IMG/VR virus record: IMGVR_UViG_3300005573_000022
Span: 1 to 41,054 of that record
Length of the DNA: 41,054 nt
Direction: 5' to 3' (one strand)
From: a virus
Shown here: positions 16,680 to 41,054 of the stretch, piece after piece
Position numbering within the stretch: position 1 is the first letter of the stretch
How the letters are laid out: each line of letters begins with the position of its first letter
Position numbers and translations under genes: made by a program
The notes under the pieces: generated by a model
What the model was told of the DNA's origin: nothing
Seen by the model: only the letters and a program-made list of their open reading frames with translations
Databases searched by the model: none

Positions 16680-16814
16680 TCATTTTTTCACTTTTTTAAA
16701 AAATTCTATCTGCCTTAATCTCTTTATTGCCTGTGCTTTAGTTTTATAAGGTTTACTTAATCTCTTCCCTTTTTCACTAAATACAACCCAACCTGCTTTA
16801 GTTCTCTTTATCAT
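16680..16814 (-). CDS. 44-aa basic micro-protein
   Basis: Own translation: MIKRTKAGWVVFSEKGKRLSKPYKTKAQAIKRLRQIEFFKKVKK. ATGA overlap with the upstream ORF. Its TGA stop directly abuts the next ATG (ATGAATG). Confidence 0.5.
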   Translation of the reverse strand: MIKRTKAGWVVFSEKGKRLSKPYKTKAQAIKRLRQIEFFKKVKK

Positions 16815-18752: not shown

Positions 18753-19483
18753 TCTTGTATATCGTGGACTAATTTATAAAACAAATTCCTTTTACCATTA
18801 GGAGTAGAAACTCCCGTAAATTTTGGTAACGCTATATAAGTATCTCCAACTTTAATTTTAGTCTTTTGTCCGTCTAAAGTAGGTTTTACCGCAGCAAATA
18901 CTTGTTCTGACCTCTCTTGAAAAGCCATTTCATCCGAAAATAGTGAAGATGTAGTATACTGCCTTACCGCATCAGAATCTTGCGAAACTGCGTGTATAGT
19001 TGAATTTTTATGCGGAAATGTTAATATCGCTGGTTGTGAAGAACGCTTATAATATATTTGCATTTCTTTAGGAAGATGATTATAAATAAACATCGCCCTT
19101 GATAATAAACTTAAATTAGAACTAAACCCCGCATCATCCTCTTTCTTTGAGACAAAGAAAATATATTGCCCATTCTGTGTCATCGCTAACCATAGATTTA
19201 AGGCTACAAAAGTCCAAGTCACCATCATCTGCCTTGACTTCACTACTAATAATAAATGTTCATTTAACCATAAGTCTATGAGTCTTTTAATATATTCTTT
19301 CTCAGGAATTCTCTTAACCGGGCTTACTGGGTCGTGCGGGTCTAATGTATATGTATATTTAAATACAAAATCGTAAGGAGATGCTACCGGAGCAAGTCTT
19401 GCATCTACGCTCCCTAACATCTTAGAGAGCTCTAAGAATGGATTATCTAAAACAACTTCAGGATTTATTTTTACTCTGGGCAT
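18749..19483 (-). CDS. terL: Large terminase, N-terminal ATPase part (separate ORF, 244 aa)
   Basis: Deviant P-loop 'VKSRQMMVTWT' (lambda gpA-like KSxRxxxS/T), Walker B 'SLFSDEMAF', and coupling motif 'GVSTPNG'. Confidence 0.7.
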   Translation of the reverse strand: MPRVKINPEVVLDNPFLELSKMLGSVDARLAPVASPYDFVFKYTYTLDPHDPVSPVKRIPEKEYIKRLIDLWLNEHLLLVVKSRQMMVTWTFVALNLWLAMTQNGQYIFFVSKKEDDAGFSSNLSLLSRAMFIYNHLPKEMQIYYKRSSQPAILTFPHKNSTIHAVSQDSDAVRQYTTSSLFSDEMAFQERSEQVFAAVKPTLDGQKTKIKVGDTYIALPKFTGVSTPNGKRNLFYKLVHDIQE

Positions 19484-22928: not shown

Positions 22929-23261
22929 ATGTGGTATATTGAAAAAGAAGTTACCATAAGCGCTGGTCATCATTTAAATAACTATGAAGGACCTTGTGCG
23001 AATAGACACGGCCATAATTGGAAAATTACAGTATATTGCAGAGGTGAGAAACTAAACTCATTGGGCATATTAGTTGATTTTAGAGATATTAAAAAAGCAG
23101 TTAGTTTTTTTGACCATAAATATTTGAATGATTTATTTCCTGAAGACGAAAATCCTACCGCAGAAAATCTTGCTAGAAGAATTTGCGAAAGCATACCTTA
23201 TTGCTATAAAGTAAAAGTAATAGAACAAGAAGGTAGTATTTGCGAATATGTTAAAGATTAA
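22929..23261 (+). CDS. queD: 6-carboxy-5,6,7,8-tetrahydropterin synthase
   Basis: 'ISAGHHL...CANRHGHNWKI' is the Cys/His zinc-catalytic signature of QueD. The ATG lies 8 nt after AGGAGG. Confidence 0.85.
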   Translation: MWYIEKEVTISAGHHLNNYEGPCANRHGHNWKITVYCRGEKLNSLGILVDFRDIKKAVSFFDHKYLNDLFPEDENPTAENLARRICESIPYCYKVKVIEQEGSICEYVKD

Positions 23262-23829
23262 TGAAATATTTTACAGCATACAAGGTGAAGGTTACTATAC
23301 TGGAATGCCCGCGATTTTTGTAAGACTTGCTGGTTGTAATCTCTCTTGCCCGTTTTGCGATACCGATTTTAGGGTTAATAGAGTAATGTGTGAAGATGAA
23401 ATAATAAAAGACATCAAGACATATAAAAACAAAAATGTAATACTAACTGGAGGTGAGCCTCTAATACAAAATCTTGACAAACTAATTAAGAAGTTAAAAG
23501 CTAATGGGTTTAATATTCATTTGGAGACAAACGGAACTATCGATACAAAGTTACCTTTTGACTGGATTACGGTTTCTCCAAAAAGCATGATTAATATCAA
23601 AAAAGCTAACGAATTTAAAATAATAGTTAAAGCATCGGACAAATTATCAAAAATTAAAAAATTAGTTCTTAAGTTAAAAAAAATTACTCCTTTAATTTAT
23701 TTGCAGCCTTGTTGGGATAAAAATCCGGAAATTACAAGGAAAAATACGGAAGTATGTGTTAAATATGTAAAGGAGGTGAAAGATTGTCGTCTAAGCCTGC
23801 AAACTCACAAGTTAATCGGTATAAAGTAA
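23248..23829 (+). CDS. queE: 7-carboxy-7-deazaguanine synthase (radical SAM)
   Basis: 'IFYSIQGEGYYTGMPAIFVRLAGCNLSCPFCDT' is the QueE N-terminal and cluster-binding motif. Confidence 0.85.
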   Translation: MLKINEIFYSIQGEGYYTGMPAIFVRLAGCNLSCPFCDTDFRVNRVMCEDEIIKDIKTYKNKNVILTGGEPLIQNLDKLIKKLKANGFNIHLETNGTIDTKLPFDWITVSPKSMINIKKANEFKIIVKASDKLSKIKKLVLKLKKITPLIYLQPCWDKNPEITRKNTEVCVKYVKEVKDCRLSLQTHKLIGIK

Positions 23830-24191
23830 GTTGGGAAGAATACGATAAAGATATTAGAATATTAGCTAATTTAATTAAAAAAGGAGGTGATGATAAATGT
23901 AGGGTTATTTATACACTTTCAAGAGGAGGATTGGTCATTGCTTGCCATTTAAGTCACTTGCTTAATATTAAAAACATTGTTGTTGATATTACTCCGCTTA
24001 TGCCGTATCCTATTTTAGTAGTAGATGATGTATCGGACACAGGAAAGACATTAAAAGAAAAGGTATTGCTTTGGAGAAGCCCGCATATAACAACTATTGC
24101 TACTTTATACCGAAAAGATGGAACTATGGTAGAACCAAAGTATACAGTTAAAACAATAAATAAATGGATAGTTTTCCCGTGGGAGGAATAA
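23784..24191 (+). CDS. gpt: Xanthine-guanine phosphoribosyltransferase-like protein (Gpt family)
   Basis: TTG start 7 nt after AGGAGG. 'LSRGGLVIACHL', PRPP loop 'ILVVDDVSDTGKTL' and C-terminal 'KWIVFPWEE' run parallel to E. coli Gpt (VSRGGLVPGALL / FIVIDDLVDTGGTA / TWIEQPWD) as I recall it. Confidence 0.75.
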   Translation: MSSKPANSQVNRYKVSWEEYDKDIRILANLIKKGGDDKCRVIYTLSRGGLVIACHLSHLLNIKNIVVDITPLMPYPILVVDDVSDTGKTLKEKVLLWRSPHITTIATLYRKDGTMVEPKYTVKTINKWIVFPWEE

Positions 24192-24209
24192 GATAAGAAA
24201 GGAGGAAAA

Positions 24210-24425
24210 ATGAATAACAAAAAACGAATAACTGGAACTCAAAAACTTTTAAACGCACTTAAAGAAGAAAAAACACTTGAAGAACTTGCGCAAGAAACTG
24301 GATTAAAAATATCTACAATAAGAATACAGCTGGGGTATCATTTGCCTAAAAAAGGCTATATTATTAAAAAAGGCCAAAAGAATGGCCAATTATCTTATAC
24401 TTTAGAGCAAGAAACCTCAAAATAA
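24210..24425 (+). CDS. Small winged-helix/HTH protein, 71 aa
   Basis: 'KTLEELAQETGLKISTIRIQLGYHL' is an HTH-like segment. GGAGGA SD. Confidence 0.5.
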   Translation: MNNKKRITGTQKLLNALKEEKTLEELAQETGLKISTIRIQLGYHLPKKGYIIKKGQKNGQLSYTLEQETSK

Positions 24426-24455
24426 AATTTTAAAAACAAAAAAGGAGAAAGAATA

Positions 24456-25016
24456 ATGAATCATAAACTTATTGAGGAGAGTATTCGCGCAATAATTCAA
24501 GCGATTGGAGAAAATCCGGAAAGAGAAGGGTTAAAAGAAACTCCTTTACGTATTGCTAAAGCCTATGAATTCCTGTTTTCTGGATATAAGCAATCACCTA
24601 AAGATATTCTTTCTAAAACATTTACGCAAGCTTATGATGAAATGGTAGTTTTAAAAAACATAGAAATATATTCTATGTGCGAACACCATTTATTACCTTT
24701 TTTTGGTAAATGTCACATTGCTTATATACCCAATGGTAGAGTTGTAGGAGTTAGCAAATTAGCAAGACTAATGGAATGTTACGCCAGAAGATTGCAAATA
24801 CAAGAACGCCTTTGCAATCAAATAGTAGATGCAATAGAAGAATACTTAAAACCGCTTGGTAGCGCTTGTATCATTGAAGCACAGCATTTTTGTATGACAA
24901 GCAGAGGTATTCAAAAACAAAATAGTGTAATGGTTACTTCTGCTTTGAGAGGAGTTTTTAGAGAAAAAATTGAAGCACGAGAAGAATTGATGAGATTGAT
25001 AAAAAATGGAGATTAA
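24456..25016 (+). CDS. folE: GTP cyclohydrolase I
   Basis: '[14 protein letters not shown]', '[18 protein letters not shown]', '[10 protein letters not shown]...RLQIQERL' are canonical FolE blocks. Confidence 0.9.
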
Positions 25017-25885
25017 TGAAATTATATTTAGCAGACTGGGAAGCAGCAAATTCTTTATTAACTAACACAAAAGAAATTGTTAGAAATATTCTTACCACTT
25101 ATTACTACAATAAAGATATACAATTTTATAAACAAATGAAACTTGAAAATAAAAATGTATTTTTAGACAGCGGAGCATTTAGTGCTTGGTCGCAAAAAAA
25201 AGAAATCAATATTTTTCAATACGCGCAATTTCTGCATAAAGTAAAAGAATATGTTGAAGTATATGCAACCCTCGATAGCATTGGAGATTATAAAAAAACA
25301 ATGGAAAATACAAAATATTTAGAAAGCGAAGGGCTGTCACCTTTACCTTGTTTTCATTACGGAGAACCAATAACGATTCTTGATAAATATGTAGATAAAT
25401 ATGAATATATAGCGTTAGGGGGAATGGTTCCGATTAGCACACCGCAACTAATGTTCTGGCTCGATGATATTTTTCATCGACATCCGAAAGTAAAATTTCA
25501 CGGTTTTGGATTAACTACACTTTTTTTGATTAAACGATATCCTTGGTATAGTGTAGATAGTTCCTCCTGGTGTAGCGGTGGTAAATTTGAGAGAGTAATT
25601 ATAAAAGATAGAACATTTGATTTTGGACGCGACCAATCTTCTCCAGATGCTTGGACAAAACAATCGTCTTATATTCAAGAATACTATAAAGAAATTTTAC
25701 AAAAAGAATATAATATTACACCAGAAGAATTATTCAACTCATATAAGCGCAGAAATGATGTAAATGTTTTATCTTTTTTACAAATAGAAAAAGAATTAAC
25801 TTTAAACCCACCAAAAATATTTCAAAAACCACAAATGGAATTTTTTGATATTTCGTTAATAGGAAAAAGAGAGGAGGAAAAATGA
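25016..25885 (+). CDS. dpdA: DpdA-type DNA (7-deazaguanine) transglycosylase, TGT superfamily
   Basis: 'VFLDSGAFSAW', 'IALGGMVP', 'FHGFGLT', 'SVDSSSW' match the phage DpdA landmarks I recall. It is embedded between folE and queC with TAATG/ATGA overlaps. Confidence 0.75.
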   Translation: MKLYLADWEAANSLLTNTKEIVRNILTTYYYNKDIQFYKQMKLENKNVFLDSGAFSAWSQKKEINIFQYAQFLHKVKEYVEVYATLDSIGDYKKTMENTKYLESEGLSPLPCFHYGEPITILDKYVDKYEYIALGGMVPISTPQLMFWLDDIFHRHPKVKFHGFGLTTLFLIKRYPWYSVDSSSWCSGGKFERVIIKDRTFDFGRDQSSPDAWTKQSSYIQEYYKEILQKEYNITPEELFNSYKRRNDVNVLSFLQIEKELTLNPPKIFQKPQMEFFDISLIGKREEEK

Positions 25886-26541
25886 AAGCAGTTTGTATTT
25901 TATCCGGAGGCATAGATAGCACAACGCTATTATATCGAATGCTCAAAGAAGGTTTCGAGGTATTACCGATTTCATTTTTCTATGGACAAAAACATTCAAA
26001 AGAATTGAAAATGGCAAGTTTAACCTGCGCTAAGTTAAACCTAAAACATAAAATAATTGATTTATCTTCAATGTCCGATTTATTAAAAAGTGCTTTGACT
26101 ACTAAAGATATTGCGGTTCCTGAAGGACATTACCAAGCAGAAAATATGAAACAAACTGTAGTCCCGAATAGGAATATGATATTTTTAAGTATTTCTGCAG
26201 GAATAGCGTATTCTACAGGAGCAAAAATAATAGGTATTGGCGTGCATACAGGTGACCACGCTATATATCCCGATTGTAGAGAAAGTTTTATTCAAGATTT
26301 TGAAAGACTGGTTAATAAAGGAAATGAATGGTTTGATGAATTACGTATTTACGCACCTTATATTAATAAAAATAAAATCGATATAGTAAAAGATGGTCTA
26401 AGTATAGGAGTAGATTATTCTCTTACCTGGACTTGTTATAAAGGCGGAGAAAAAGCTTGTGGGAAATGTGGTTCTTGTATTGAAAGATTAGAAGCGTTTA
26501 ATAAAAATAACGCTCAAGACCCTTTAGAGTATGAAAGTTGA
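25882..26541 (+). CDS. queC: 7-cyano-7-deazaguanine (preQ0) synthase
   Basis: PP-loop 'AVCILSGGIDSTT' and the C-terminal zinc site 'CYKGGEKACGKCGSCIER'. Confidence 0.9.
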   Translation: MKAVCILSGGIDSTTLLYRMLKEGFEVLPISFFYGQKHSKELKMASLTCAKLNLKHKIIDLSSMSDLLKSALTTKDIAVPEGHYQAENMKQTVVPNRNMIFLSISAGIAYSTGAKIIGIGVHTGDHAIYPDCRESFIQDFERLVNKGNEWFDELRIYAPYINKNKIDIVKDGLSIGVDYSLTWTCYKGGEKACGKCGSCIERLEAFNKNNAQDPLEYES

Positions 26542-27019: not shown

Positions 27020-27904
27020 ATGGAAGAACGAAATTTTATTGGCGGTTCTGATATTGCGGCAGTAATGGGTTTAAGTCGATATAAAACCCCTTTAAGGCTA
27101 TGGGCAGAAAAAGTAGGACTAGTAGAACCAGAAGATTTAACTAATAAAGAATATGTGCAACTTGGTAGCGAACTTGAGGATTTCATTGCAAAAAAATTTG
27201 CTAAATCAACAGGTATGAAAATACGGCGCGCGCCACGAAGATATGTTCATAAAAAATATCCTTTTATGACTTGCCAAGTTGACCGTTTAATCGAAGGAAC
27301 CGATATGCTACTGGAGTGTAAAAATGTTTCAGCTTGGAAAGAAAAAGAATGGGGTGGAGAAGAAATACCGATTGAATATATTTTGCAAGTTTCTTGGCAG
27401 TTAATGATTACTGGTAGAAGTAAAGGTTACATAGCCGTTCTTATTGGGGGGAATAAATTTAGATATAAGGAAATTCAAGCTGACCAAGAAATGTTTGACA
27501 AAATGACAGAATCTGCGATTAAATTTTGGGATATGGTGCAAAATAAAATTCCCCCTGCAGCAACCGGAGAAGATAATGAAATATTACTCACTTTATATCC
27601 TCAATCAAACGAGCAAATACAAGCAATAGAAGAAATGAATAATTGTATTGCACTTTTACAGCAAGTTAAAGCCAATATAAAAGAATTAGAAGCACAGAGA
27701 GATGAATTAGAAGCAAAATTAAAAGAAGTAATTAAAGATAGCCTCGGTATAAGAACAAGTGAATACATTGTAAAATGGATACCACAAACAGTATCGTTAC
27801 TTAATTATGACGCATTAAAAGCGGATGGATTATATGAAAAATATCTTATAAAAAAAGAAACAAGAGTTTTAAGAGTTTTTAAAAACAAAGGAGGTGAAAT
27901 ATGA
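27020..27904 (+). CDS. YqaJ/RecE-type 5'-3' recombination exonuclease
   Basis: 'GGSDIAAVMGLSRYKTPLRLW' and the downstream 'CQVDRLIEG...LLECKN' PD-(D/E)XK core. Paired with RecT by an ATGA overlap. Confidence 0.8.
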   Translation: MEERNFIGGSDIAAVMGLSRYKTPLRLWAEKVGLVEPEDLTNKEYVQLGSELEDFIAKKFAKSTGMKIRRAPRRYVHKKYPFMTCQVDRLIEGTDMLLECKNVSAWKEKEWGGEEIPIEYILQVSWQLMITGRSKGYIAVLIGGNKFRYKEIQADQEMFDKMTESAIKFWDMVQNKIPPAATGEDNEILLTLYPQSNEQIQAIEEMNNCIALLQQVKANIKELEAQRDELEAKLKEVIKDSLGIRTSEYIVKWIPQTVSLLNYDALKADGLYEKYLIKKETRVLRVFKNKGGEI

Positions 27905-28938
27905 GTAATAATTTAGAAAAAGCAAAACAAGCAATAGCGACGGCACCACAGATAACAACAATATACGATTTTTTTGAGAAACAAAAAGACCTTATTAAAA
28001 ATGCTTTACCTAAAACAATTACGCCTGATAGAATGGTATCGCTTTTTACTATGCTCGTGAAATCTTCACCGGAGATAATGAATTGTAGTCAAGTTTCGCT
28101 CATCGCGGCAGTTATTCAAACTATACAACTTGGTTTTTTGCCCATACCTTCCACAGGACATGTTTATTATGTCCCGTTCGCTAATCGTAAAAAAGATGGC
28201 ACTATAGTAAAAGAAGTTCAATTCATTTTAGGATACAAAGGAATGATAGATTTAATTAATCGTAGCAGAGATGCCGCTGTTTTATGTGCTGAATGTGTCT
28301 ATGAAAACGACTATTTTGAATATTCTCTCGGGTTAAATCCTGTGCTTATACATAGACCAACAAAAGAAAACAGAGGTCAAATAATAGGAGTATACGCGAT
28401 AGGTAAAAATAAAGTAGTAGATGAAAAAATATTTGTATATCTCACAAGAGATGAAATTGAAAAAGTACGTGCCGCATCAAAAAGCGGTAACGCAGAATAT
28501 TCCCCATGGGTAAAATGGTATGAAGAAATGGCTAAAAAAACCGCGATAAAACGCCTTGCAAAATTACTCCCTCTATCAATAGATATACAAAAACAACTAG
28601 CGACTGATGAAACGATTAAAACCGAAATTGCTCCTGATATGACTATAGTTAAAGATGAGACTAACTGGAATAGTGAAGAAGAACAATCAAGTTTTACTTC
28701 TGAAAAACAAACAACTCAAACAAATGTTATAGAAGTTACGCCGCGTAGCACAATTACTGAAAAACAAGAAAATGCTATAAAAGAACTGGCTAAAAAAAGA
28801 TATGCTGAAAAATGGCAAGTTGAAATTTTAAACAGAATTGGTAGCGAATTCGGTGTAGAAACCTTAAATATGCTCACCGATAAACAAGCCGAAATACTAA
28901 TAAAAGAACTGCAAAAAGAAAATGAAAATAATAACTAA
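27901..28938 (+). CDS. recT: RecT-family single-strand annealing protein
   Basis: 'QVSLIAAVIQTIQLGFLP', 'ILGYKGMIDLINRS', 'SPWVKWYEEMAKKTAIKRLAKLLPLS' are RecT family blocks. Confidence 0.85.
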   Translation: MSNNLEKAKQAIATAPQITTIYDFFEKQKDLIKNALPKTITPDRMVSLFTMLVKSSPEIMNCSQVSLIAAVIQTIQLGFLPIPSTGHVYYVPFANRKKDGTIVKEVQFILGYKGMIDLINRSRDAAVLCAECVYENDYFEYSLGLNPVLIHRPTKENRGQIIGVYAIGKNKVVDEKIFVYLTRDEIEKVRAASKSGNAEYSPWVKWYEEMAKKTAIKRLAKLLPLSIDIQKQLATDETIKTEIAPDMTIVKDETNWNSEEEQSSFTSEKQTTQTNVIEVTPRSTITEKQENAIKELAKKRYAEKWQVEILNRIGSEFGVETLNMLTDKQAEILIKELQKENENNN

Positions 28939-29812: not shown

Positions 29813-29974
29813 ATGGAAAAAATAACATTTAGGGCATCGTTGTATAAAATGCAAAGAGATTATGAAGATGAATGTAAAATTACTTTTCAAGTGCCAGCAT
29901 CAGAATTAGAAGAAGTTGTAAAAGTTCCTGCGCAAAAAGAATTATTAATTGAAATTTTAGTGAAAGAAAAATGA
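29813..29974 (+). CDS. 53-aa micro-protein
   Basis: Own translation: MEKITFRASLYKMQRDYEDECKITFQVPASELEEVVKVPAQKELLIEILVKEK. AAGGAGG upstream, and ATGA overlap with the methyltransferase gene. Confidence 0.45.
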   Translation: MEKITFRASLYKMQRDYEDECKITFQVPASELEEVVKVPAQKELLIEILVKEK

Positions 29975-30657
29975 TTACTCCTTATTACGAAGAAGAAGGA
30001 ATAAAGATTTATTTAGGTGATTGTCTTGAGGTTATGAAAGAAATACCAGATAAGTCAATAGACCTTGTATTGACTGACCCGCCTTGGGCATTAGGTAAAA
30101 AAGAATATGATACAGAAAAAGAAATGTTTACTTTTAAGAAAGCAATGCCCGAAATAAATAGAGTATTAAAAGATAATAAACATTTCTTATGTGATACGAG
30201 TTATACACAATTATTTAAAACGAATGAAATTATAAGCCCATTTTTAATTTATCGCCAACCTATAATTCTTTATTGTAATAATCAAATTGGACATCATAGT
30301 TTTGTGGGGTGGAATCACTTTAGAATGATTTTATGGTATTGTAAAACTAAACCCAATAAGCCTGTAAAACGATATAGAGATGTAATAGAGTTTCCAATGA
30401 AATCTACAAAAAAAGAAGGATGGAATTTTCCTAATCCCAAAGATGTTTATACTTATAAAAAGTTAATAGAAATGTTTAGTAATAAAAATGACTTAATTCT
30501 TGACCCCTTTCTTGGCTCTGGCACTACTTTAGTTGCCTGTAAAGAATTAGGCAGGCAAGGTATAGGTATAGAAATTAACAAAAAATATTGTGATATAGCA
30601 GTTAGGCTACTTAAAAATACTATACGACCTTTATTTTATGAAAGCAAAACTTGTTAA
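29971..30657 (+). CDS. Beta-class DNA amino-methyltransferase (N6-adenine or N4-cytosine)
   Basis: Catalytic 'DLVLTDPPW' precedes the AdoMet motif 'LILDPFLGSGTT', which is the beta-class order. Confidence 0.8.
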   Translation: MITPYYEEEGIKIYLGDCLEVMKEIPDKSIDLVLTDPPWALGKKEYDTEKEMFTFKKAMPEINRVLKDNKHFLCDTSYTQLFKTNEIISPFLIYRQPIILYCNNQIGHHSFVGWNHFRMILWYCKTKPNKPVKRYRDVIEFPMKSTKKEGWNFPNPKDVYTYKKLIEMFSNKNDLILDPFLGSGTTLVACKELGRQGIGIEINKKYCDIAVRLLKNTIRPLFYESKTC

Positions 30658-33266: not shown

Positions 33267-33737
33267 ATGAACATTAACAAAATCAAAAAAGAAATTTTAA
33301 AAGGTTATAATAGTATTCCTTTAGGAGTTGAAAAAATAAAATGGGATACAGGAATTTATGTTTATAAAAATGAAAAATACAGATTTAAAGAATATGCTTT
33401 TTATTTTCCGTATTATTTAGACAAAGAAGACTTACGGGAAGTTGGAAAAAATATGAAAAGATTAGAAATTTATCTTACTTATGATTTTGAAGGATTTTTT
33501 GACCCTATAGTTTTTCACGGTGAAGTATATCCTATTACAAAATTATTATCAAAATTAGAACAATTTCGGATTGAAGTGCCTATGAAAAGAGATGAAAAAA
33601 ATGAAAACGAAAGAGTAATAAATCCCAATCATAAAATTATTTTTGTAGAAAGAGTGCCTTTAGAAATAGGGAAAGAATCGGTATGTAATATTGGAATGTG
33701 CGAAATTTATACAAGATTTTTAGTTATTATAGATTAA
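33267..33737 (+). CDS. Hypothetical protein, 156 aa (last plus-strand gene)
   Basis: AAGGAGG SD. Its stop overlaps the stop of the convergent ATP-grasp gene. Confidence 0.5.
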   Translation: MNINKIKKEILKGYNSIPLGVEKIKWDTGIYVYKNEKYRFKEYAFYFPYYLDKEDLREVGKNMKRLEIYLTYDFEGFFDPIVFHGEVYPITKLLSKLEQFRIEVPMKRDEKNENERVINPNHKIIFVERVPLEIGKESVCNIGMCEIYTRFLVIID

Positions 33738-34981
33738 AAATTTATTCCTACCTTTTTACCTTTCTCAATAATCTCTTTTATTTTAATTAGTCCGTTGATA
33801 GTATCAGTTTCTAATCCATATCCAGATATTTTTTCGGAATACTTCTCTAAATTATCAACAACTTCTTCTATTGAATTCCCGCCATAAACTACAACTGCTA
33901 CCGTAGGGTTTCCTTTAACCGCAAAATATTCTTTGTTAGAAGAACCCGCAACTGATATAAATCTAATATATTCTCTATCTTTTTTATCGACTATCAATTT
34001 GACCCAGTTTTTCTCAGCGTGAGAACAATGGATAGGAACTGCACCTACATATTTATAAGGAATATCTAACTTAACAGATTGTTTTAAACCAATTTTATAT
34101 ATTACTTCTGGCCAATTTTTTATAATAACTGGATATAAATGACCTAAAGGATTAGGAAGCCTTGCACAAAAATCTAAAAAATAATGTTCTTTTTCTGATA
34201 AAACTTTTTCTTCAGTAGATAAAGCGCCTCTATAATCCATTTCTTTTAAGACTGGTCTTAATTTTTCTAAAGTCTCTTTTAAAGGATAAGGTAAATCTTC
34301 AAATTTTTCACAGACTTTTCCTAAGTAGCACGCCTTTGAATATTCATAACCGTATATAATGGGAGAAACATAATCTTCTCCCCAGAAGAAAGTATCAACT
34401 CCAGGCTCTACATCGGTATCTATATAATCTTCAACGATAAAATCATAATCTTCTTTAAAAGGACCTAACATCGAAGCAATTTCGTCAAACAATAATTCTG
34501 AAGATTTATAATCTTTAGCGTGAAATGAGGAAATATCGTGTCTAAATATATCAAATTTTATATATTTATTAGGATTTTCTTTAATATATTCTTTTAAAGC
34601 GGATAAACCAGTAATTTTAACCGTCTCTTGAACAGGAAGATTTATTTCACTAAGCATTTGTTTTAAAGACCATCTCTCATTCTCAAGCATTTCTCCAATA
34701 CCAGAACCAAAAATAGATTTATCAGGATATTGTTTTTTTAAAAAGACAATTAAATCGTTAAAATGAACATCGAAATTTACTATACAATCAGCTTCTTCGA
34801 TATAGTCAAAAAAATATAAAATCTTTTCTAAATGTTCAAAATCTTTACCAATGGCATAATCTTGGAATTTAGGAAAAGCGGTTTGCCAAGGAGTGTAATA
34901 ATAGACTTTATTTTTACCGTTATCACTTAAAGCGTTTGCTTCTTCAACGAATAATCCTAAATCTAAAACTAAAAATTTCAT
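33734..34981 (-). CDS. ATP-grasp fold ligase, PurD-like layout (415 aa)
   Basis: By-eye colinearity with PurD: 'MKFLVLDLG', 'IFGSGIGEMLENERWSLKQMLSEINLPV', 'KYIKFD', 'FIVEDYID', 'HYFLDFCARLPNP' (PurD: IFGP..LEGSKAF.K.F....IP / VIKAD / IEEFL.G / VIEFNCRFGDPE). Confidence 0.6.
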   Translation of the reverse strand: MKFLVLDLGLFVEEANALSDNGKNKVYYYTPWQTAFPKFQDYAIGKDFEHLEKILYFFDYIEEADCIVNFDVHFNDLIVFLKKQYPDKSIFGSGIGEMLENERWSLKQMLSEINLPVQETVKITGLSALKEYIKENPNKYIKFDIFRHDISSFHAKDYKSSELLFDEIASMLGPFKEDYDFIVEDYIDTDVEPGVDTFFWGEDYVSPIIYGYEYSKACYLGKVCEKFEDLPYPLKETLEKLRPVLKEMDYRGALSTEEKVLSEKEHYFLDFCARLPNPLGHLYPVIIKNWPEVIYKIGLKQSVKLDIPYKYVGAVPIHCSHAEKNWVKLIVDKKDREYIRFISVAGSSNKEYFAVKGNPTVAVVVYGGNSIEEVVDNLEKYSEKISGYGLETDTINGLIKIKEIIEKGKKVGINF

Positions 34982-35085
34982 TCGTCTTCCTCGTATCCTT
35001 CTTCTTTATCCTTTTCATTTTCTTCAGTTAAAAGGAAAAAAAGAAAAACCATAAAAAGAAATATTGAAGCGGTTAAAGAACTCAT
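34978..35085 (-). CDS. 35-aa micro-protein: hydrophobic helix plus hyper-acidic C-terminal tail
   Basis: Own translation: MSSLTASIFLFMVFLFFLLTEENEKDKEEGYEEDE. ATGA overlaps at both ends link it to the 637-aa gene and to the ATP-grasp gene. Confidence 0.45.
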   Translation of the reverse strand: MSSLTASIFLFMVFLFFLLTEENEKDKEEGYEEDE

Positions 35086-36995
35086 TCTCTTTTTTGTAAA
35101 TATCTAATAACTTGTTCTTCCGTTGGTCTTATTGTAGTTAATTGTTGCCAAGGATATCTTAATAATCCCGCCGTTCTTAATAAAGTTTTATAAGTTGCTG
35201 GTAAAGTTCCTAAAACCATTATACCGCCACCTAAAGGACCAGCTAAACTTGTGCCAAATATCATAGATGCTAACATATTTAAAGCACGACCTCTAAATAT
35301 ATGTGGGTCTGTAAGTCTCCAAGATTGTGCTGCTAAAAATTTTCTAATATCATTAAATAATTCCGGGTCAGTATTTTCTAATCTCTGTCTTAAAATAGAA
35401 CCAGGCTCTATAATATTTCTTAATCTTTTTACTAATTCATCAGCCCCTACTGCTTCCCAATAACCTTTTCTTGTAGGATTAGTCACAATATTTTTCCTAA
35501 TTAAATTAGAATCTTTCATAAACTCGTGATAATTTCTTTTGGCTTGTTGATATTGTTGTGCTAATCTTGGACTTTTTGCAGAAATTGCTTGCGTAATAAG
35601 ATTTCCTAAAGAATTATAAATATCCCATAGCATATTCTCATATCTTGATATATCTTCACCACGATGACTTTCTAATTTATTAGCGATAGATTCCATCGTA
35701 AGTTTAGCTTGATTAATATTTTTAATATTTACTAATCTATCAAAAGTTCTCATTAAATATTTTGTTATACTTGTAGTAGCTTCTTCATCTAAATCAATCT
35801 TAAAAAGTTTTGATAATTCTCTTTGTGATAAAGGTCTTTCTGCCGCTTGTGCTACTTTTCTTAACTGTGCTATTTCTACTGGAGATAATAATCCTACTGC
35901 TTCTAAGTTTGTTTGTAAATTTTCAGCTAAAGGTCTAACATCAATAGGTTCTTGTCTAAATTGGTCTAAAATTTTAGAAACTCTTTCTCCTAATTCAGTC
36001 TTTGTTTTTTGTAAAGTTTCTAATATATTAGGAATTATTTTTCTTGCAGTTTGTGGATTTCTATTTATAGGAGTATCAACATTTTCTATTCCAAATTCAT
36101 AAGTAGTATCAATATCTTCTTTTGGCATTCTTGAAGCAAATTGCGCAATCATACTAAAAATATTTTTAGGATATTTTTCTAAATTTTTTATAAAAGACCT
36201 TGTATAAGTTTCTATTTTTCCCATTGGCCTTTCTCCAACGTAAGGAGCACGTTCTGCGGTTGCTAACTCTGATTTAGTTAAAGGTCTTTCGGGATATAAT
36301 CCTCCTAAGCCTGCTCCAATTAAAGTTTGTGAAATAGTTTCTTCTTTAGGAGGAGTTTCTCCAAAAAGTTTTGGAATTTGCGCCGTCGTTCCTGCTACTG
36401 CCCCCATTCCTGCTGCAGTCATCGGTCTTGCTAACCATTGAGTAGGTGCTAATCTACCAATTCTTGCACCAGCGTGCCATAAAGGATAAGTAGCCCCAGA
36501 AAGTAAAGCAGATGGTAAAGTTTGTATAGGATGCCCTTCTAAAGTTCCTCTAAGTTGAGTATAGCCTCCGATTCCTAACATTCCTGATATAATAGGTCTT
36601 AAACCTAAAGCTCTTAATGCACCAATTCCTCCAGCAATAAAAGGTAAATCTCTTCCTGCTTGTGTAAGACCTACGGTTAAATATTCAGGTAAAGTTTTAG
36701 GTTTTTCTGCCTCCGCTTCTCTTAAAATTCTTTCTGCATATTGTTCTCTTGTTTCTCCAGGTCGTCTAACTGCAGGACCAGCCATAGTCCAGTATAAACC
36801 TTTTCTTAACCAACGAGGATAAAGTTCTGCTAAAGATTCTGCTCCCATTATTGCTAAACGCCAAGGGTCTAATGGTTGTTCTACAGTTTCATTCCAAATA
36901 TTATCTAAAGAACGCCTTTCACTTGTAATTTTAGGAGTTAAACCTATTGTTTCGTTATATATATCATCTAATGACCTTTGTGGCATTTTTACCAC
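35082..36995 (-). CDS. Internal virion / DNA-ejection-type protein with glycine-zipper membrane segments (637 aa)
   Basis: Hydrophobic Gly/Ala-rich stretches (FIAGGIGALRALGL..ISGMLGIGGY; AAGMGAVAGTTA). N-terminal duplicated decapeptide RSLDDIYNET / RSLDNIWNET. Positional analogy to podovirus core proteins. Confidence 0.4.
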   Translation of the reverse strand: MVKMPQRSLDDIYNETIGLTPKITSERRSLDNIWNETVEQPLDPWRLAIMGAESLAELYPRWLRKGLYWTMAGPAVRRPGETREQYAERILREAEAEKPKTLPEYLTVGLTQAGRDLPFIAGGIGALRALGLRPIISGMLGIGGYTQLRGTLEGHPIQTLPSALLSGATYPLWHAGARIGRLAPTQWLARPMTAAGMGAVAGTTAQIPKLFGETPPKEETISQTLIGAGLGGLYPERPLTKSELATAERAPYVGERPMGKIETYTRSFIKNLEKYPKNIFSMIAQFASRMPKEDIDTTYEFGIENVDTPINRNPQTARKIIPNILETLQKTKTELGERVSKILDQFRQEPIDVRPLAENLQTNLEAVGLLSPVEIAQLRKVAQAAERPLSQRELSKLFKIDLDEEATTSITKYLMRTFDRLVNIKNINQAKLTMESIANKLESHRGEDISRYENMLWDIYNSLGNLITQAISAKSPRLAQQYQQAKRNYHEFMKDSNLIRKNIVTNPTRKGYWEAVGADELVKRLRNIIEPGSILRQRLENTDPELFNDIRKFLAAQSWRLTDPHIFRGRALNMLASMIFGTSLAGPLGGGIMVLGTLPATYKTLLRTAGLLRYPWQQLTTIRPTEEQVIRYLQKRE

Positions 36996-37693: not shown

Positions 37694-39526
37694 TTAAAAT
37701 AATAATCTACCACCAGCAACAGGACTTAATGCTCCAGTTCCTGCTAACATAAGTCCTAAACCAGCAGTTCCAAAAAGTTGTCTTAAAGATTGAACATTAG
37801 CAACATCAACTCCATATTTCATTGCCGCTTGTTCTACAGAAAGACCAGTTAAACCTACCAATTCTTGTAAAGTATTTTGGTCTATTCCTGTTGCTTGTTG
37901 TAATGCCATTAAACGCGTATTAATTTCTTCAGTTCTTCTTTGAACTCCAAATTGCGCAAGAAAATCTTCTTTATCTTTTTGAATTTGTTCTTCCCAATCT
38001 CTTAATGCTTGTAAATGTTCAGAAGAATAAGGAGAGCCAAATTGAGTATAATAATCAGTTATCCGTTTTCTTCCTTCTTCTGCCGCTTCATCCATTTGCC
38101 TTAAAACTGATTGTATATAAGGGTCAGAAGTGACATCAGGATAAACTTGACCAAATGGAGAAGTTAAAATTCTTTGAAGTTCTTTTTGAGCAGTTTGACC
38201 AATCGGAGTTAAATATCCTTGTCTTACAGTTTGTAAAGTTTGTGATAATTCTTCCGGCATTTTAAATTGTGGAGTAGGAAGTAAAGCACCCATTCCACTA
38301 ATTGCTAATCCAGGTAGTGCTCCTCTTAAACCTGATAAAATTCCCGCTCCTGCTGTAGTTGCCCCTGTAGACATAGCACCTAAACCAGTCGCCACTGGAG
38401 TTGCGGTTAAACCTCCTGCCCCTCCAGTAATTGTATAAGGAACTCCACCGAAAGTGACTTGTGTCCCTAATCCGGAAGCACCTGCTAAACCTCTCGCTCC
38501 CGCAGTAGTTCCTAAAAGACCTCCTAAAAATTCTCCTCGCGGAGTTATTCTAAAAATATTACTAATACCTGAACCTATTCTTTGACCTAAAGTCGCGCCT
38601 TGACCTGCAGCGCCAAAACCACTTATAAATCTACTTCCTGCATAAGGTAACGCCGCTAATGCTATTTCTGAAGGTTGAGCTTCCCCTCTTTGCACTGCTC
38701 TTGCAGTAGTTCCTACTGCAGTTGCTAAAGCAGGTAATTGCCAAGGTCCCGGTATTGCCGATGCAATAGTAGCTAAAGGTCTGATAATTTGTCTTGCTCT
38801 TTTCCCGCCTTTAACTTTTTTTGCTTCACTATCAGTTATTACATATTCAGGAATTAAAGTAGGTGATAAAACATAAACCTCATCTGGTAAAATTGATAAA
38901 TCAACTCCATTTTCATCTTCCCAGACTTCAAAATGGTGATTATAGTGAATAATATAAGGAAATGGTAATTTATTTAGTTCTGTTTTAGGAATTCTCATAG
39001 GATACAACAAAAATTCATTATCTTGCGCTATCTTACATAAAGTATCTAAAGATATTTTGTTAGTTCTTCCATTAAGACTTCCTACTAACTGGTCAAAAGC
39101 CAAAATTCCGCAATTGTTTTTCATTTCATTATACCTCCTTTTTGAAATTTTAAATTGATTTCTTTTATTTATCCAAAGCCCTAAATCTATATCTTTTTCT
39201 TTCATTTCAAGTTTTCTTACTAAATCACTTATCTTACAATTATTATTTTTAACTAACAAATCTATATATACCAAATCCCCATCAGTATAATTTTTAGGCA
39301 ATTCCCAAGTTTGATAAAGTTTTAAAATTTCTTCAATATCATTTTCAGTAATTTTATAATAAGTTAAATATCCATCAATAGAACCATTATTAGAATAAAC
39401 TATAACTTGCTTTTTATCCATTAAATTCTTCAAATAACTATAAAACTCATCTAAAGGATATGGCTCTATATTTTTACAATGTTTTATAGTAAAAAGTATT
39501 AAATCGTTAATAGAAAACTCTTTCAT
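37694..39526 (-). CDS. Multidomain virion protein: acyltransferase-like N-domain, C39-like cysteine-peptidase domain, Gly/Ala-rich membrane-active region, helical C-terminus (610 aa)
   Basis: 'NNCGILAFDQLVG' (Cys site) and 'FPYIIHYNHHFEVWED...LPDE' (His/Asp) fit the C39 papain-like pattern. The first 130 aa or so loosely parallel HlyC-type acyltransferases. Long GxxxG/A-rich tract between about aa 250 and 410. Confidence 0.45.
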   Translation of the reverse strand: MKEFSINDLILFTIKHCKNIEPYPLDEFYSYLKNLMDKKQVIVYSNNGSIDGYLTYYKITENDIEEILKLYQTWELPKNYTDGDLVYIDLLVKNNNCKISDLVRKLEMKEKDIDLGLWINKRNQFKISKRRYNEMKNNCGILAFDQLVGSLNGRTNKISLDTLCKIAQDNEFLLYPMRIPKTELNKLPFPYIIHYNHHFEVWEDENGVDLSILPDEVYVLSPTLIPEYVITDSEAKKVKGGKRARQIIRPLATIASAIPGPWQLPALATAVGTTARAVQRGEAQPSEIALAALPYAGSRFISGFGAAGQGATLGQRIGSGISNIFRITPRGEFLGGLLGTTAGARGLAGASGLGTQVTFGGVPYTITGGAGGLTATPVATGLGAMSTGATTAGAGILSGLRGALPGLAISGMGALLPTPQFKMPEELSQTLQTVRQGYLTPIGQTAQKELQRILTSPFGQVYPDVTSDPYIQSVLRQMDEAAEEGRKRITDYYTQFGSPYSSEHLQALRDWEEQIQKDKEDFLAQFGVQRRTEEINTRLMALQQATGIDQNTLQELVGLTGLSVEQAAMKYGVDVANVQSLRQLFGTAGLGLMLAGTGALSPVAGGRLLF

Positions 39527-40153: not shown

Positions 40154-41054
40154 TTAAAAGAAGGTATATACTCTGACTTCACCTCTTGCTCCAGAACCTC
40201 CATTTCCGCCTCCACCACCTCCTGGTGGATTACCACTGCTTGTCGCTCCTCCTCCACTTCCTCCGCAAACGCTTGCACCACCACTACCATTACCTCCGCC
40301 GCCTCCACCTCCACCAAAAACAGAACTTCCACCACTACCATTACCTGACCCTCCACCGCCTCCACCCCAAGCAGAAGCACCTCCATTTGCTCCTGTGCTA
40401 TCTCCTCCACCTCCACCGCCAAAACCACTATTAGAAGTTCTTGCGCTACTTCCTCCTGGACCACCACCTGAACCTCCAGTAGAAGAGCTACCAGTTCCTC
40501 CTGTTCCCCCTATTCCACCTCCACCTCCGCCTCCACTGGGACGAGCTAAACTACTTCCCCCTCCTCCCCCATAAGCATAAACATAACTTCCAAAACTTGA
40601 AGCTCCTCCTGCTCCTCCATAAGAGGCATTAGGTGAATTAGCAGGACCTCCAGCACCTACAGTTATTGCTACAGAAGAAGGTAAATTACTAGCTATAAAT
40701 AATGACCTATTATATGCGCCACCACCTCCGCCGCCTCCATCTCCACCGTAATTTGTTCCAGCACCTCCACCTCCACCCCATAACTCAACTATAACAAATT
40801 TTGCTCCAGAAGGTTTATTCCAAGTTCCAGAGGAAGTAAAAATTTGAATATCAGTTGAAGGAATAGTAGGTGCTAAACTACTCTTTTTTGCTTTTTTCTT
40901 TGCATAATTTGCCTCGCTATCTTCTATCAAAACTATATCATTATCAGAAAGAGTAGTTTTTTCAGTTAAAGCATTGATTTCGCCTGCGGTAGTTTTAGAG
41001 AGTTTAGTATTATCTTGAGTATCTACATATGCTTTCCTTACTGCCTGATTATCA
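40154..41054 (-). CDS. Glycine-rich tail fibre, C-terminal part (open to the window end; 40934-41054 duplicates 1-121)
   Basis: The frame is open from 41054 to the stop at 40154. 'FVIVELWGGGGGAGTNYGGDGGGGGGGAY' is followed by several poly-Gly blocks interrupted by short beta-like segments. Confidence 0.75.
   Translation of the reverse strand, partial: DNQAVRKAYVDTQDNTKLSKTTAGEINALTEKTTLSDNDIVLIEDSEANYAKKKAKKSSLAPTIPSTDIQIFTSSGTWNKPSGAKFVIVELWGGGGGAGTNYGGDGGGGGGGAYNRSLFIASNLPSSVAITVGAGGPANSPNASYGGAGGASSFGSYVYAYGGGGGSSLARPSGGGGGGGIGGTGGTGSSSTGGSGGGPGGSSARTSNSGFGGGGGGDSTGANGGASAWGGGGGGSGNGSGGSSVFGGGGGGGGNGSGGASVCGGSGGGATSSGNPPGGGGGGNGGSGARGEVRVYTFF
40934..41054. repeat. Second copy of the 121-bp terminal overlap (identical to 1-121)
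   Basis: Same comparison. Base 40933 is the last unique base. Confidence 0.95.

Follow-up and report, generated by a model that had tools for sequence, protein, structure and literature searches.

Known ATP-grasp ligases that act on protein tails recognise a terminal acidic run preceded by an aromatic residue; the tubulin tail modified by TTL and TTLL, for example, ends in ..GEEY and the LysW tail in ..EDWGE. RimK is an ATP-grasp ligase that acts on the acidic C-terminus of S6 (PMC10375531), and LysX, an ATP-grasp ligase with the acid-tailed protein LysW, is mentioned in PMC3249071. Among phages, the "gamma-glutamyl amide" operon of LUZ24, phiRIO-1 and TC6 combines an ATP-grasp protein with a COOH-NH2 amidoligase and a glutamine amidotransferase (Iyer et al. 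2009, cited in PMC4819975 and PMC6209634).

The stretch of viral DNA analysed here (41,054 nucleotides, IMG/VR record IMGVR_UViG_3300005573_000022; hereafter the window) contains a minus-strand chain that runs from a 637-aa ORF (35082..36995) through a 35-aa micro-ORF (MSSLTASIFLFMVFLFFLLTEENEKDKEEGYEEDE, 34978..35085) to a 415-aa ATP-grasp ligase (33734..34981), with an ATGA overlap at both junctions. As in the RimK-S6, TTL/TTLL-tubulin and LysX-LysW systems, where the acidic run often follows an aromatic residue or Gly, the tail of the potential partner is acidic and ends in Glu or Asp. In contrast with those systems, however, an acidic partner accompanies merely ~15% of the ligase lineages, the ligase is itself acidic overall, and it belongs to the PurD branch of the fold rather than to the RimK/GshB/Ddl branch of the RimK-type ligases. 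The ATP-grasp of the LUZ24/phiRIO-1 operon is likewise a phage enzyme predicted to form peptide or amide bonds of an unusual kind, perhaps on protein substrates, but it is ~270 aa long, belongs to a different family (BFVD matches such as that of Pseudomonas phage Bjorn reach TM 0.37 to the window ligase) and lies in a non-structural operon, whereas the window ligase lies in a virion module. No COOH-NH2 (GCS2-like) ligase or glutamine amidotransferase Pfam was detected among the neighbours of the ligase in the window or at homolog loci. Graspetide clusters also place a short peptide ORF directly upstream of an ATP-grasp gene, although MdnB and MdnC represent a different fold branch, and the conserved Thr/Ser/Lys-Asp/Glu core, leader, protease and exporter of these clusters are absent here.

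Genomic setting of the ligase

The ligase is the final gene of the minus-strand block in the window. It meets a convergent plus-strand ORF (33267..33737) tail to tail, its stop sharing 4 nt with the end of that ORF, and a search for terminator-like sites found none. A sequence-only reading of the window had reported the ORFs, their ATGA overlaps and an LDFCAR motif in the ligase, all of which we recovered. It had also placed the ligase last in the virion operon, which is correct for the window phage but does not extend to its relatives, in which tail-fibre/spike genes come after the ligase. The ligase has a GAGGA Shine-Dalgarno sequence (34988..34992, minus strand) 6 nt before its ATG and inside the final acidic codons of the micro-ORF, and analogous GAGGA/GAGGAGG elements sit upstream of the ligase at three related loci (L006, L023 and L024). 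This element accounts for at most the final 3-4 acidic residues of the window micro-protein.

The 637-aa protein contains Gly/Ala-rich hydrophobic segments and coiled-coil-like stretches, and its C-terminal LLRTAGLLRY has a homologous counterpart at the end of the protein immediately adjoining the ligase in a related locus (L059). It gave no significant family match in Pfam or PHROG, and from its size, position and Gly/Ala-rich hydrophobic segments it is presumed to be an internal virion or ejection protein. Proteins of 400-1,400 aa occupy the equivalent upstream position in relatives; these large proteins have no PHROG match that would assign them to the internal virion class.

The only deposited records with a ligase homolog are Aquificae viruses, which carry the gene between portal and terminase. 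The Pyrovirus paper makes no mention of it, and our literature search returned no paper describing an ATP-grasp in a podovirus virion module. In T7-like layouts the ligase lies between large virion proteins and tail-fibre/spike genes, and a member fused to a HAD phosphatase adjoins TerL and a portal-like gene. At the loci examined, no biosynthetic or pur gene was adjacent to the ligase, and the setting was a virion module in very different layouts. These comparisons show that the ligase is a constant member of the late gene module (virion/ejection/head-morphogenesis) across a wide range of uncultured tailed phages. It shows 47-57% identity even between phages for which BLAST detects no match of portal to portal or capsid to capsid.

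The ligase family and its relation to PurD

A profile of the ligase family matched PurD (PDB 2yw2) end to end over the N, A and C domains (E=3.7e-11), and an AF2 model of the 415-aa protein (pLDDT 95.7, pTM 0.93) had PurD as its best Foldseek match in the PDB (TM 0.71), in agreement with the PurD-type ATP-grasp layout previously proposed by eye. The best 50 of the 556 Foldseek matches at E<=1e-3 were all PurD, PurK, PurT or biotin carboxylase, and none of these 50 was RimK, TTL or MdnB/C. The ligase accordingly groups with enzymes of small molecules. Viral TTL-like models in BFVD match it at TM ~0.3 or less, and the BFVD fold search returned no close viral structure (best TM 0.47). Single-sequence scans of Pfam, PHROGs, PADLOC and the PDB (phmmer) gave no match, in Pfam not even at E<=1. 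Homologs comprise 94 word-indexed sequences and at least 957 cluster representatives (50% identity) at E<=1e-30, while a search of 185,579 species genomes gave no cellular relative; the family is confined to viruses and is without annotation in Pfam, PHROGs and BFVD.

Judged by these alignments and models, the ligase is a three-domain ATP-grasp enzyme of the PurD fold with its catalytic residues intact, having the same N, ATP-grasp A/B and C architecture as PurD (2yw2, 1gso), PurK, PurT and biotin carboxylase. It has in common with PurD the LExxR/K motif, the ATP-binding Lys, the hinge Glu, two acidic Mg ligands and the catalytic Arg. K142, which aligns with the PurD ATP-binding Lys, is invariant in the 47 family members compared, as are E257, D270 and R274, and position 184 is Glu in 46 of them. 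The family is, however, merely 12-16% identical to PurD and differs from it in several loops: the R-F-G-D-P-E that follows the catalytic Arg in PurD is replaced by R-L-P-x-P (also given as R-L-P-N-P), the N-terminal G-x-G-G-R-E-H-A by D-x-G-L (consensus LVxDxGLxxExA), and the B-domain G-L-A-A-G-K-G by F-R-G-D-x-E-S-F. The PurD models GARS_N, GARS_A and GARS_C of Pfam missed 44 of the 47 members, the other three touching GARS_A, and the purine-biosynthesis context of PurD is absent. The prospect that the homologues might prove to be bona fide PurD was thus not borne out: the ligase is neither PurD nor a purine-pathway enzyme, and we consider it very likely to be an active ATP-grasp enzyme specific to viruses. 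It is acidic (pI 5.1, net charge -17) and has many conserved Asp/Glu residues, a composition that would be unfavourable for gripping a polyanion.

The metal/catalytic motif, D270-F-C272-A-R274 (codons 34160..34174, minus strand), aligns to E-F-N-V-R of Aquifex PurD and is the family's form, D-x-C/T-x-R, of the ATP-grasp E-x-N-x-R. Position 272 is Cys in 32 of the 47 members and Thr in 13, and the Asn of the E-x-N triplet is found in none; the family consensus continues as D-x-C-x-R-L-P-x-P-L. D-x-C/T-x-R is therefore a hallmark of the family. While the sequence-only reading was right that D-F-C stands in place of E-x-N, the non-canonical chemistry that it drew from this does not follow, because D-x-C/T is family-wide and PurK and PurT also lack the Asn, so that its loss is not disqualifying for the ATP-grasp superfamily. 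About 11 of the best 150 representatives carry an intein between residues 271 and 272, within the motif itself. Inteins typically target indispensable sites, and we take this one as a sign of the importance of the ligase. Three representatives are fused to a HAD phosphatase (P0263 by Pfam above cut-off, P0220 and P0205 by motif), suggesting a phosphorylated substrate.

This branch of about a thousand 50%-identity clusters, confined to viruses, exceeds the surrounding capsid and portal genes in conservation. Knowledge of its substrate would give a function to widespread phage "dark matter" and reveal how ATP-dependent amide-bond chemistry serves virion assembly or genome delivery.

Micro-ORFs upstream of the ligase

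The window micro-protein consists of a hydrophobic, TM-helix-like segment encoded by a T-rich tract (LTASIFLFMVFLFFLL, residues 4-19, 35029..35076, minus strand) and an acidic tail (TEENEKDKEEGYEEDE, residues 20-35, 34981..35028, minus strand) in which an aromatic residue is followed by a C-terminal D/E run (..GYEEDE). Ten of its last 16 residues are Asp or Glu, whereas the runner-up among the 266 small ORFs of the window (25-90 aa, six frames) has five. Hyper-acidic micro-ORFs occupy the same slot in six other lineages, namely L006, L010, L023, L024, L026 (weaker) and L069, the last from a distant clade. They encode 28-45 aa, and their C-terminal design is an aromatic residue followed by 4-7 D/E. 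The acidic micro-ORFs overall have 0-2 Lys/Arg, those other than the window's 0-1. The tails compared, the window's included, read ..GYEEDE, ..GYDEDDE, ..VYEEEDDE, ..IWDEDEEDD, ..VWAEEEDE and ..FMDDDE. The window peptide shares with the others this tail design and its position, but not their D-x-aromatic-Y-D core. When we surveyed 679 kb of the window and related loci, comprising 4,880 distinct ORFs of 25 aa or more, the tail design was found in L006, L010, L023, L024 and L069 and elsewhere in just one dubious ORF. A C-terminal run of at least four D/E occurred in seven of the 4,880, six of which lie in the slot and five of which are chained directly to the ligase start (Fisher p ~2.5e-10 for these five). 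All acidic micro-ORFs found are 5' to a ligase, and in five of the seven cases there is an overlap with the start of that ligase. The L006 and L023 micro-proteins are 69% identical, compared with 59% for their ligases, and the substitution rates of this pair (pN 0.20, saturated pS 0.76) show purifying selection.

The same comparison showed that an acidic partner is absent in ~85% of sampled lineages, so the question of whether homologous ligases have an acidic-tailed micro-ORF upstream is answered positively for six other lineages but negatively for most. Among close relatives the slot may hold an acidic ORF, a ~130-aa ORF, a basic 43-aa ORF, a hydrophobic or Pro/Gly-rich ORF, or no ORF. One alternative occupant, class B, is a ~125-aa protein with an invariant HExxE..D..H..E, coupled upstream of the ligase in four lineages and also downstream of one ligase with merely 24% identity; near-identical ligases can have an acidic cassette in one lineage and a class B cassette in another (L023 vs L005). 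Another, the class C basic mini-protein (43-44 aa), sits away from the ligase in the window, beside the portal. Given this variability and the placement of class C, the adjacency of ligase and micro-ORF may reflect a hotspot for small genes. No ligase residue varied convincingly with whether an acidic partner is present; the highest-ranking columns, R340 and N277, are common to class B clade-mates, and their signal is thus phylogenetic.

Conservation of the micro-ORF, which the earlier reading had looked for, did not hold up close to the window: the four closest ligase relatives have none, their ligase start overlapping the upstream gene directly. The window micro-ORF is probably a lineage-specific gene, inserted into a slot of hypervariable content that follows the last large virion protein and precedes the ligase. 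Because the nearest relatives lack it, it amounts to a 104-nt insertion, and this absence would also suit an unlikely reading in which the 35-aa ORF is no gene but a low-complexity T-tract/purine-tract spacer that holds the ligase ribosome-binding site and is open by chance. Consistent with such a spacer, the low-complexity sequence has no detectable homolog, its own Shine-Dalgarno sequence is weak (AAGAGA adjoining the ATG), the ligase GAGGA falls within its final codons and two of the three frames of its purine tract are open. Against it stand the exact ATGA coupling at both ends, an acidic tail that is the most extreme among the small ORFs of the window, the recurrence of the tail design in the same slot and the constraint on the L006/L023 pair. 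A T-tract/purine-tract RNA hairpin in place of a gene was rejected because its folding (MFE -24.8 kcal/mol) was no better than that of dinucleotide shuffles (z=-0.19). On three other contigs of this phage the ORF was predicted by independent gene callers as well, and it is probably a real gene.

Candidate substrates and partners of the ligase

Like other ATP-grasp ligases, the enzyme would use ATP to turn a carboxylate into an acyl-phosphate that is then joined to an amine. Its most likely target would lie within the virion module, as a protein or peptide, and not among free metabolites, because the gene stays in that module, has no metabolic partners and is repeatedly coupled to small dedicated proteins; that it acts on a protein or peptide is a proposition we rate just short of even. 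In lineages having an acidic micro-protein, the latter would be the best candidate for the carboxylate substrate, or else for an adaptor or regulator of the ligase, since the acidic C-terminal design recurs in the same slot and recalls RimK-S6, TTL-tubulin and LysX-LysW. It would be an accessory partner and not a universal substrate, as most lineages are without one. This account, a virion-module ligase with the micro-ORF as a candidate accessory partner, is our best overall explanation and a tentative one. Its narrower part, in which the acidic micro-protein is a substrate or partner of the ligase, is plausible but unproven and rather doubtful, because no acidic partner accompanies the ligase in ~85% of lineages, the ligase is itself acidic and its fold is not of the RimK, TTL or graspetide kind.

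The two genes could quite possibly be unrelated neighbours, the micro-protein being the product of one among many small accessory genes that gather in the hypervariable slot behind the ejection-type proteins, and the ligase having some other target; the micro-protein could then be an acidic DNA-mimic or anti-defence peptide that is packaged or co-ejected, an acidic internal peptide of the head or, in the window, a small membrane protein. The varied slot contents among close relatives, the cassette swaps and the displaced class C protein fit this reading, as does the prevalence of ATGA coupling in the window operon, which joins even the TerL halves, and in L010 an HNH gene splits the micro-ORF from the ligase while the micro-ORF still adjoins the large protein. 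In L024, however, it is the large protein from which the micro-ORF has been parted by another gene, its overlap with the ligase start being kept; the consistent 5' position of the acidic micro-ORFs and a tail design of the kind that known protein-tail ATP-grasp ligases recognise likewise speak against chance neighbours. Should the micro-ORF be irrelevant, the ligase might instead work at the small-molecule or nucleotide level, joining an amino or other small acid to an amine on a phosphorylated sugar, nucleotide, polyamine or nucleic-acid moiety needed late, for example one packaged with or attached to DNA. Such an enzyme, which we regard as possible but on the doubtful side, would be in keeping with the exclusively small-molecule character of the best 50 structural matches, the PurD-type N and C domains, the HAD fusions, an acidic pI and conserved acidic residues suited to a cationic amine, and the many lineages without a peptide partner. 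It is harder to reconcile with the strict confinement of the gene to virion modules across very different genome layouts, where a biosynthetic gene is never adjacent, and with the loss of the PurD signatures for PRA binding (R-L-P-N-P and D-x-G-L in their place). The fused HAD domains are moreover small and capless-looking, a type that often acts on macromolecules.

Two more specific chemistries fare worse. The window encodes QueE, FolE and QueC, an Aquificae virus with the ligase (TGBSV) carries a TGT/DpdA-like gene, and PurT-type ATP-grasps acylate amines, so the ligase might serve the 7-deazaguanine DNA-modification pathway encoded on the opposite strand, for example by amidating carboxy- or aminomethyl-deazaguanine. 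Yet the co-occurrence expected from the link drawn in the sequence-only reading was not found: the complete ACSV genome has the ligase without an annotated TGT or Que gene, AJCSV has no TGT/Que gene in 33.5 of 39.4 kb, Que, FolE and DpdA homologs are absent within +-10 kb of the ligase on nine viral contigs, no neighbour of any homolog matched a Que Pfam, and in the window the ligase lies in the late operon on the opposite strand, ~7 kb from the Que cluster. This reading is largely refuted and very improbable. Equally remote is a graspetide-type RiPP in which the ligase would macrocyclise Thr/Ser/Lys with Asp/Glu side chains of the micro-peptide. The precursor-like ORF directly upstream and the T20, K25 and K27 interspersed among the acidic residues in the window would suit it, but the fold is PurD-like and not of the RimK-like MdnB/C type, the other acidic micro-ORFs are poor in Lys/Arg and share no Thr/Ser/Lys-Asp/Glu core repeat, and the surroundings are a virion module in which no leader/core organisation, protease or exporter was found nearby.

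Returning to the acidic micro-protein as a partner of the ligase, a fuller and distinctly speculative version, built by analogy with the known tail ligases, would have protein-tail ligation on a PurD-type scaffold. The ligase would activate the terminal carboxylate of the micro-protein and either extend it, as RimK and TTL do, or conjugate it to amines such as lysines in the basic C-terminal regions of the neighbouring ejection proteins, the micro-protein serving as a Pup- or LysW-like tag or carrier for assembly or host delivery. Should the acidic micro-proteins turn out to be the substrates, protein-tail ligation would for the first time be known from a phage, and for the first time on a PurD scaffold.

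The class B protein would act as a hydrolase elsewhere in this scheme. It is unrelated by hhalign or BLAST to the proteins beside the ligase in Pyrovirus (134-144 aa and 125-130 aa), and a fold search with it gave nothing significant, only weak resemblances to zincin proteases (SPRTN at E=0.15, BlaR1 and PprI), which would be compatible with a ligase and a hydrolase working as a pair on peptide bonds.

Locus organization and identity of the ligase

The window is a phage genome of ~41 kb with a GC content of ~28% (profiled over 30-41 kb), whose minus strand carries the large terminase, portal, major capsid, and tail-fiber genes and whose plus strand carries QueE/FolE/QueC, YqaJ/RecT, and a DNA methylase. 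On the minus strand, a 637-aa ORF (35082-36995), a 35-aa micro-ORF (34978-35085), and the 415-aa ligase ORF (33734-34981) are joined in succession by ATGA overlaps, and the ligase gene closes the minus-strand block, with its stop overlapping a convergent 156-aa ORF. The 35-aa product, MSSLTASIFLFMVFLFFLLTEENEKDKEEGYEEDE, has a hydrophobic, TM-like stretch ahead of a 16-residue tail in which ten residues are Asp/Glu, and a GAGGA Shine-Dalgarno sequence for the ligase gene lies within its final acidic codons. This phage was also found in metagenome assemblies from hot springs, in which gene callers likewise predicted the 35-aa ORF.

On its own, the ligase sequence matched nothing in Pfam, PHROGs, PADLOC, or the PDB, BFVD held no close structure, and all 94 of its word-indexed homologs are unnamed. 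The PurD-type ATP-grasp layout proposed by eye in the sequence-only reading was nevertheless borne out by profile and model. A 47-sequence ligase profile matched Aquifex PurD (E=3.7e-11) over all three domains (N, ATP-grasp, and C), and the best 50 PDB matches of a very confident AlphaFold model (pLDDT 95.7, pTM 0.93) were all PurD, PurK, PurT, or biotin-carboxylase-type enzymes and were led by PurD (E=2.4e-18, TM 0.71, 12-16% identity). No RimK, TTL, or graspetide ligase was among these 50. The invariant columns of the family (E100, R103, G125, K142, R147, G194, E257, D270, and R274) form the ATP-grasp core.

The D-F-C triplet found in place of E-x-N is real and is a hallmark of the whole family: in the 47-sequence alignment, the Asp and the Arg of the motif are present in 47/47 members, with the third position being Cys in 32 and Thr in 13. 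Since the Asn of E-x-N is also absent in PurK and PurT, this substitution alone does not imply unusual chemistry, and the non-canonical reaction suggested earlier does not follow from it. The ligase is not a bona fide PurD, because PurD-specific loops are not kept in the family and the Pfam GARS models fail on 44 of the 47 members. The ligase is an intact PurD-fold ATP-grasp enzyme of a large, virus-only family, and we infer that it joins a carboxylate to an amine through an acyl-phosphate.

Distribution and genomic context of the ligase family

When 1.84 billion cluster representatives were searched exhaustively with the profile, 957 matched at E<=1e-30, a number that rose to 2,155 at E<=1e-3, while 0/185,579 representative bacterial and archaeal genomes contained a relative. 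Only three deposited phage records carry a homolog, all from hot-spring Aquificae viruses, in which the gene lies between portal and terminase and is labeled a purine enzyme or a hypothetical protein; the paper on these viruses does not discuss it. In the closer relatives, the ligase gene is flanked on one side by large virion proteins (400-1,400 aa) that could not be assigned to a family and on the other by tail-fiber/tailspike genes (K1-lyase_C, Gly_rich_2, and a pectate-lyase-like protein), so its position as the last gene of the operon holds for the window but not for these relatives. The family is fixed in late/virion modules.

Ligase identity is 47-57% between phages with portal and capsid proteins that tblastn does not match to each other. 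For example, the ligases of IMG/VR phages (loci L048-L056) are 47-50% identical to that of the window, yet the portal, capsid, tail-fiber, and replication genes gave no tblastn match within +-10 kb. The window TerL is similar to its counterpart in the Aquificae Pyroviruses (28-29%), while the window ligase is closer to those of non-thermal metagenome phages. This pattern suggests strong constraint on the ligase, its horizontal exchange, or both.

Approximately 11 of the top 150 family representatives are 740-786 aa long due to an intein with a LAGLIDADG domain (P0136, P0137, P0138, P0139, P0151, P0167, P0169, P0173, P0176, P0183, and P0225; also P0094). The insertion position was read in P0136, and the other ten were inferred from length and a split profile match. 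In P0136, the intein lies between residue 271 and C272 (…HYFLDM/C…GN/CARLP…), inside the catalytic D-x-C-x-R motif, with C272 serving as the +1 extein nucleophile; the equivalent codon in the window is 34166-34168. Three representatives (P0263, P0220, and P0205) carry an N-terminal extension of ~120 aa, which in P0263 is a small HAD-family phosphatase domain passing Pfam HAD thresholds. The P0263 gene (locus L061, 2333-3940) is flanked by a terminase-like gene and a probable portal gene and is preceded by a 138-aa ORF.

Variable content of the slot upstream of the ligase

Across ~45 distinct lineages, the content of the slot ending at the ligase start is hypervariable. It can hold a hyper-acidic micro-ORF of 28-45 aa (class A: the window, L006, L023, L024, L069, L010, and, more weakly, L026), a conserved protein of ~125-130 aa (class B: L003, L005, L032, and L042), a basic 43-aa protein (class C, four lineages), a hydrophobic ORF of 41-52 aa (class D), a Pro/Gly-rich 130-aa ORF, a 68-aa ORF, or nothing; in class E, no ORF intervenes, and the stop codon of the large gene is overlapped by the ligase start. 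An acidic-tailed micro-ORF upstream of homologous ligases, as the sequence-only reading proposed to look for, was found in six other lineages but not in the four lineages whose ligases are closest to that of the window (52-57% identity), which are class B or E. Together with the homology between the tails of the L059 upstream protein and the window's 637-aa protein, this distribution indicates that the window micro-ORF is a 104-nt lineage-specific insertion. In the ligase tree, classes A and B alternate between near-identical ligases.

The occurrence of class A ORFs at this position is highly non-random. Only 7 of 4,880 distinct six-frame ORFs (at least 25 aa, 679 kb) end in at least four Asp/Glu residues; the seven comprise five ORFs overlapping the start of a ligase gene, the L010 ORF, and an Arg-rich, probably spurious ORF (Fisher p ~2.5e-10, with an approximate count of 34 chained ORFs). 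An aromatic residue immediately precedes the terminal acidic run in all six slot ORFs, and a D-x-aromatic-Y-D core is common to five of the seven class A ORFs (L006, L023, L024, L026, and, less clearly, L010) in an alignment that left out L069. The window peptide lacks this core, having only tail and position in common with the others. Between L006 and L023, the micro-proteins are 69% identical compared to 59% for the adjacent ligases, with pN of 0.20 and a saturated pS of 0.76. These values indicate that class A ORFs are real genes. Acid-tailed micro-proteins thus form a class that recurs, under selection, in the position immediately preceding the ligase. An RNA hairpin within the micro-ORF was rejected, as it scored no better than shuffles. 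In L010, the acidic micro-ORF is separated from the ligase by an inserted HNH_3 homing-endonuclease gene, which lies on the opposite strand and overlaps the micro-ORF's end (3452-3577 and 3556-3864).

Class B comprises ~41 unannotated proteins of ~125 aa with an invariant H-E-x-x-E…D…H…E pattern. Its genes are start/stop-coupled to the ligase, upstream in four lineages (L003 3615-4004, L005 3605-4000, L032 626-1021, and L042 1123-1500) and directly downstream through an ATGA overlap in L020 (4092-4463). Since the L020 ligase is only 24% identical, the linkage is old; a class B protein was also found alone in a Pacebacteria MAG. The confident class B model (pLDDT 96.8) had no significant PDB match, and its weak top matches were the zincin metalloproteases SPRTN (E=0.15), BlaR1, and PprI, which is only suggestive of a hydrolase.

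Candidate substrates and other features of the genome

Given the fixation of the family in virion modules, a protein or peptide of that module is our tentative choice for the ligase target, with a little under an even chance. That the acidic micro-protein would be an accessory substrate, adaptor, or regulator of the ligase in lineages having one is plausible, though less likely than not. There are two main rivals, which are compatible with each other. One, that the micro-protein is an unrelated small accessory gene in a hotspot, is slightly more probable than this pairing; the other, that the enzyme acts on a small or phosphorylated molecule, is suggested by its fold relatives and by the HAD fusions and is about as probable as the pairing. 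The ligase is itself acidic (pI 5.1, net -17), as are most homologs, which is mildly unfavorable for binding a polyanion. The residues that best tracked an acidic partner, R340 and N277, are clade markers also present in class B clade-mates. The boldest reading, in which the phage would ligate or tag protein tails with an enzyme built on a PurD scaffold, is improbable.

Two more specific proposals of the sequence-only reading fared worse. Neither the ligase fold nor the peptide features fit a graspetide system, and a link to 7-deazaguanine was not supported: the complete genome of the Aquificae virus ACSV has the ligase without an annotated TGT or Que gene, no deazaguanine genes were found within +-10 kb of the ligase in nine viral contigs, and only one ligase-bearing Aquificae virus examined, TGBSV, has a TGT-like gene. 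The ATP-grasp class is known; no description of this ligase branch, its context, or its possible pairing with acid-tailed micro-proteins was found in the libraries and literature searched.

Elsewhere in the window, a basic 44-aa ORF (16680-16814, minus strand; MIKRTKAGWVVFSEKGKRLSKPYKTKAQAIKRLRQIEFFKKVKK) is a homolog of the 43-aa class C slot ORF and precedes a 141-aa ORF and the portal gene. The large terminase (17925-19483, minus strand) is encoded by two ORFs that meet in an ATGA overlap (18749-18752), a 244-aa ATPase part followed by a 275-aa nuclease part. The cause may be a true division of the gene, a frameshift, or faulty assembly. A 258-aa protein (40154-40930, minus strand) consists mostly of poly-glycine runs (GGGGGG..SGG..), producing a 55% GC island in a genome that is otherwise much poorer in GC, and a Gly_rich_2 protein comes after the ligase in L010. 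Further GC-rich islands at 36.2-36.8 kb and 38.2-38.8 kb correspond to Gly/Ala/Pro-rich parts of the 637-aa and 610-aa proteins. The latter (37694-39526, minus strand), a virion-module protein, has an N-terminus weakly resembling Peptidase_C39 (E=0.014, which does not reach the cut-off) and, after it, an extended region rich in Gly/Ala; it is a possible ejection protein bearing a cysteine-peptidase-like domain. The plus-strand 7-deazaguanine precursor cluster and adjoining genes (23248-26541, 27020-28938, and 29971-30657) encode, in order, a radical-SAM QueE-like protein, FolE, an unassigned 289-aa ORF that may be a DpdA-type transglycosylase, QueC, the YqaJ exonuclease/RecT recombination pair, and an N6/N4 DNA methylase.
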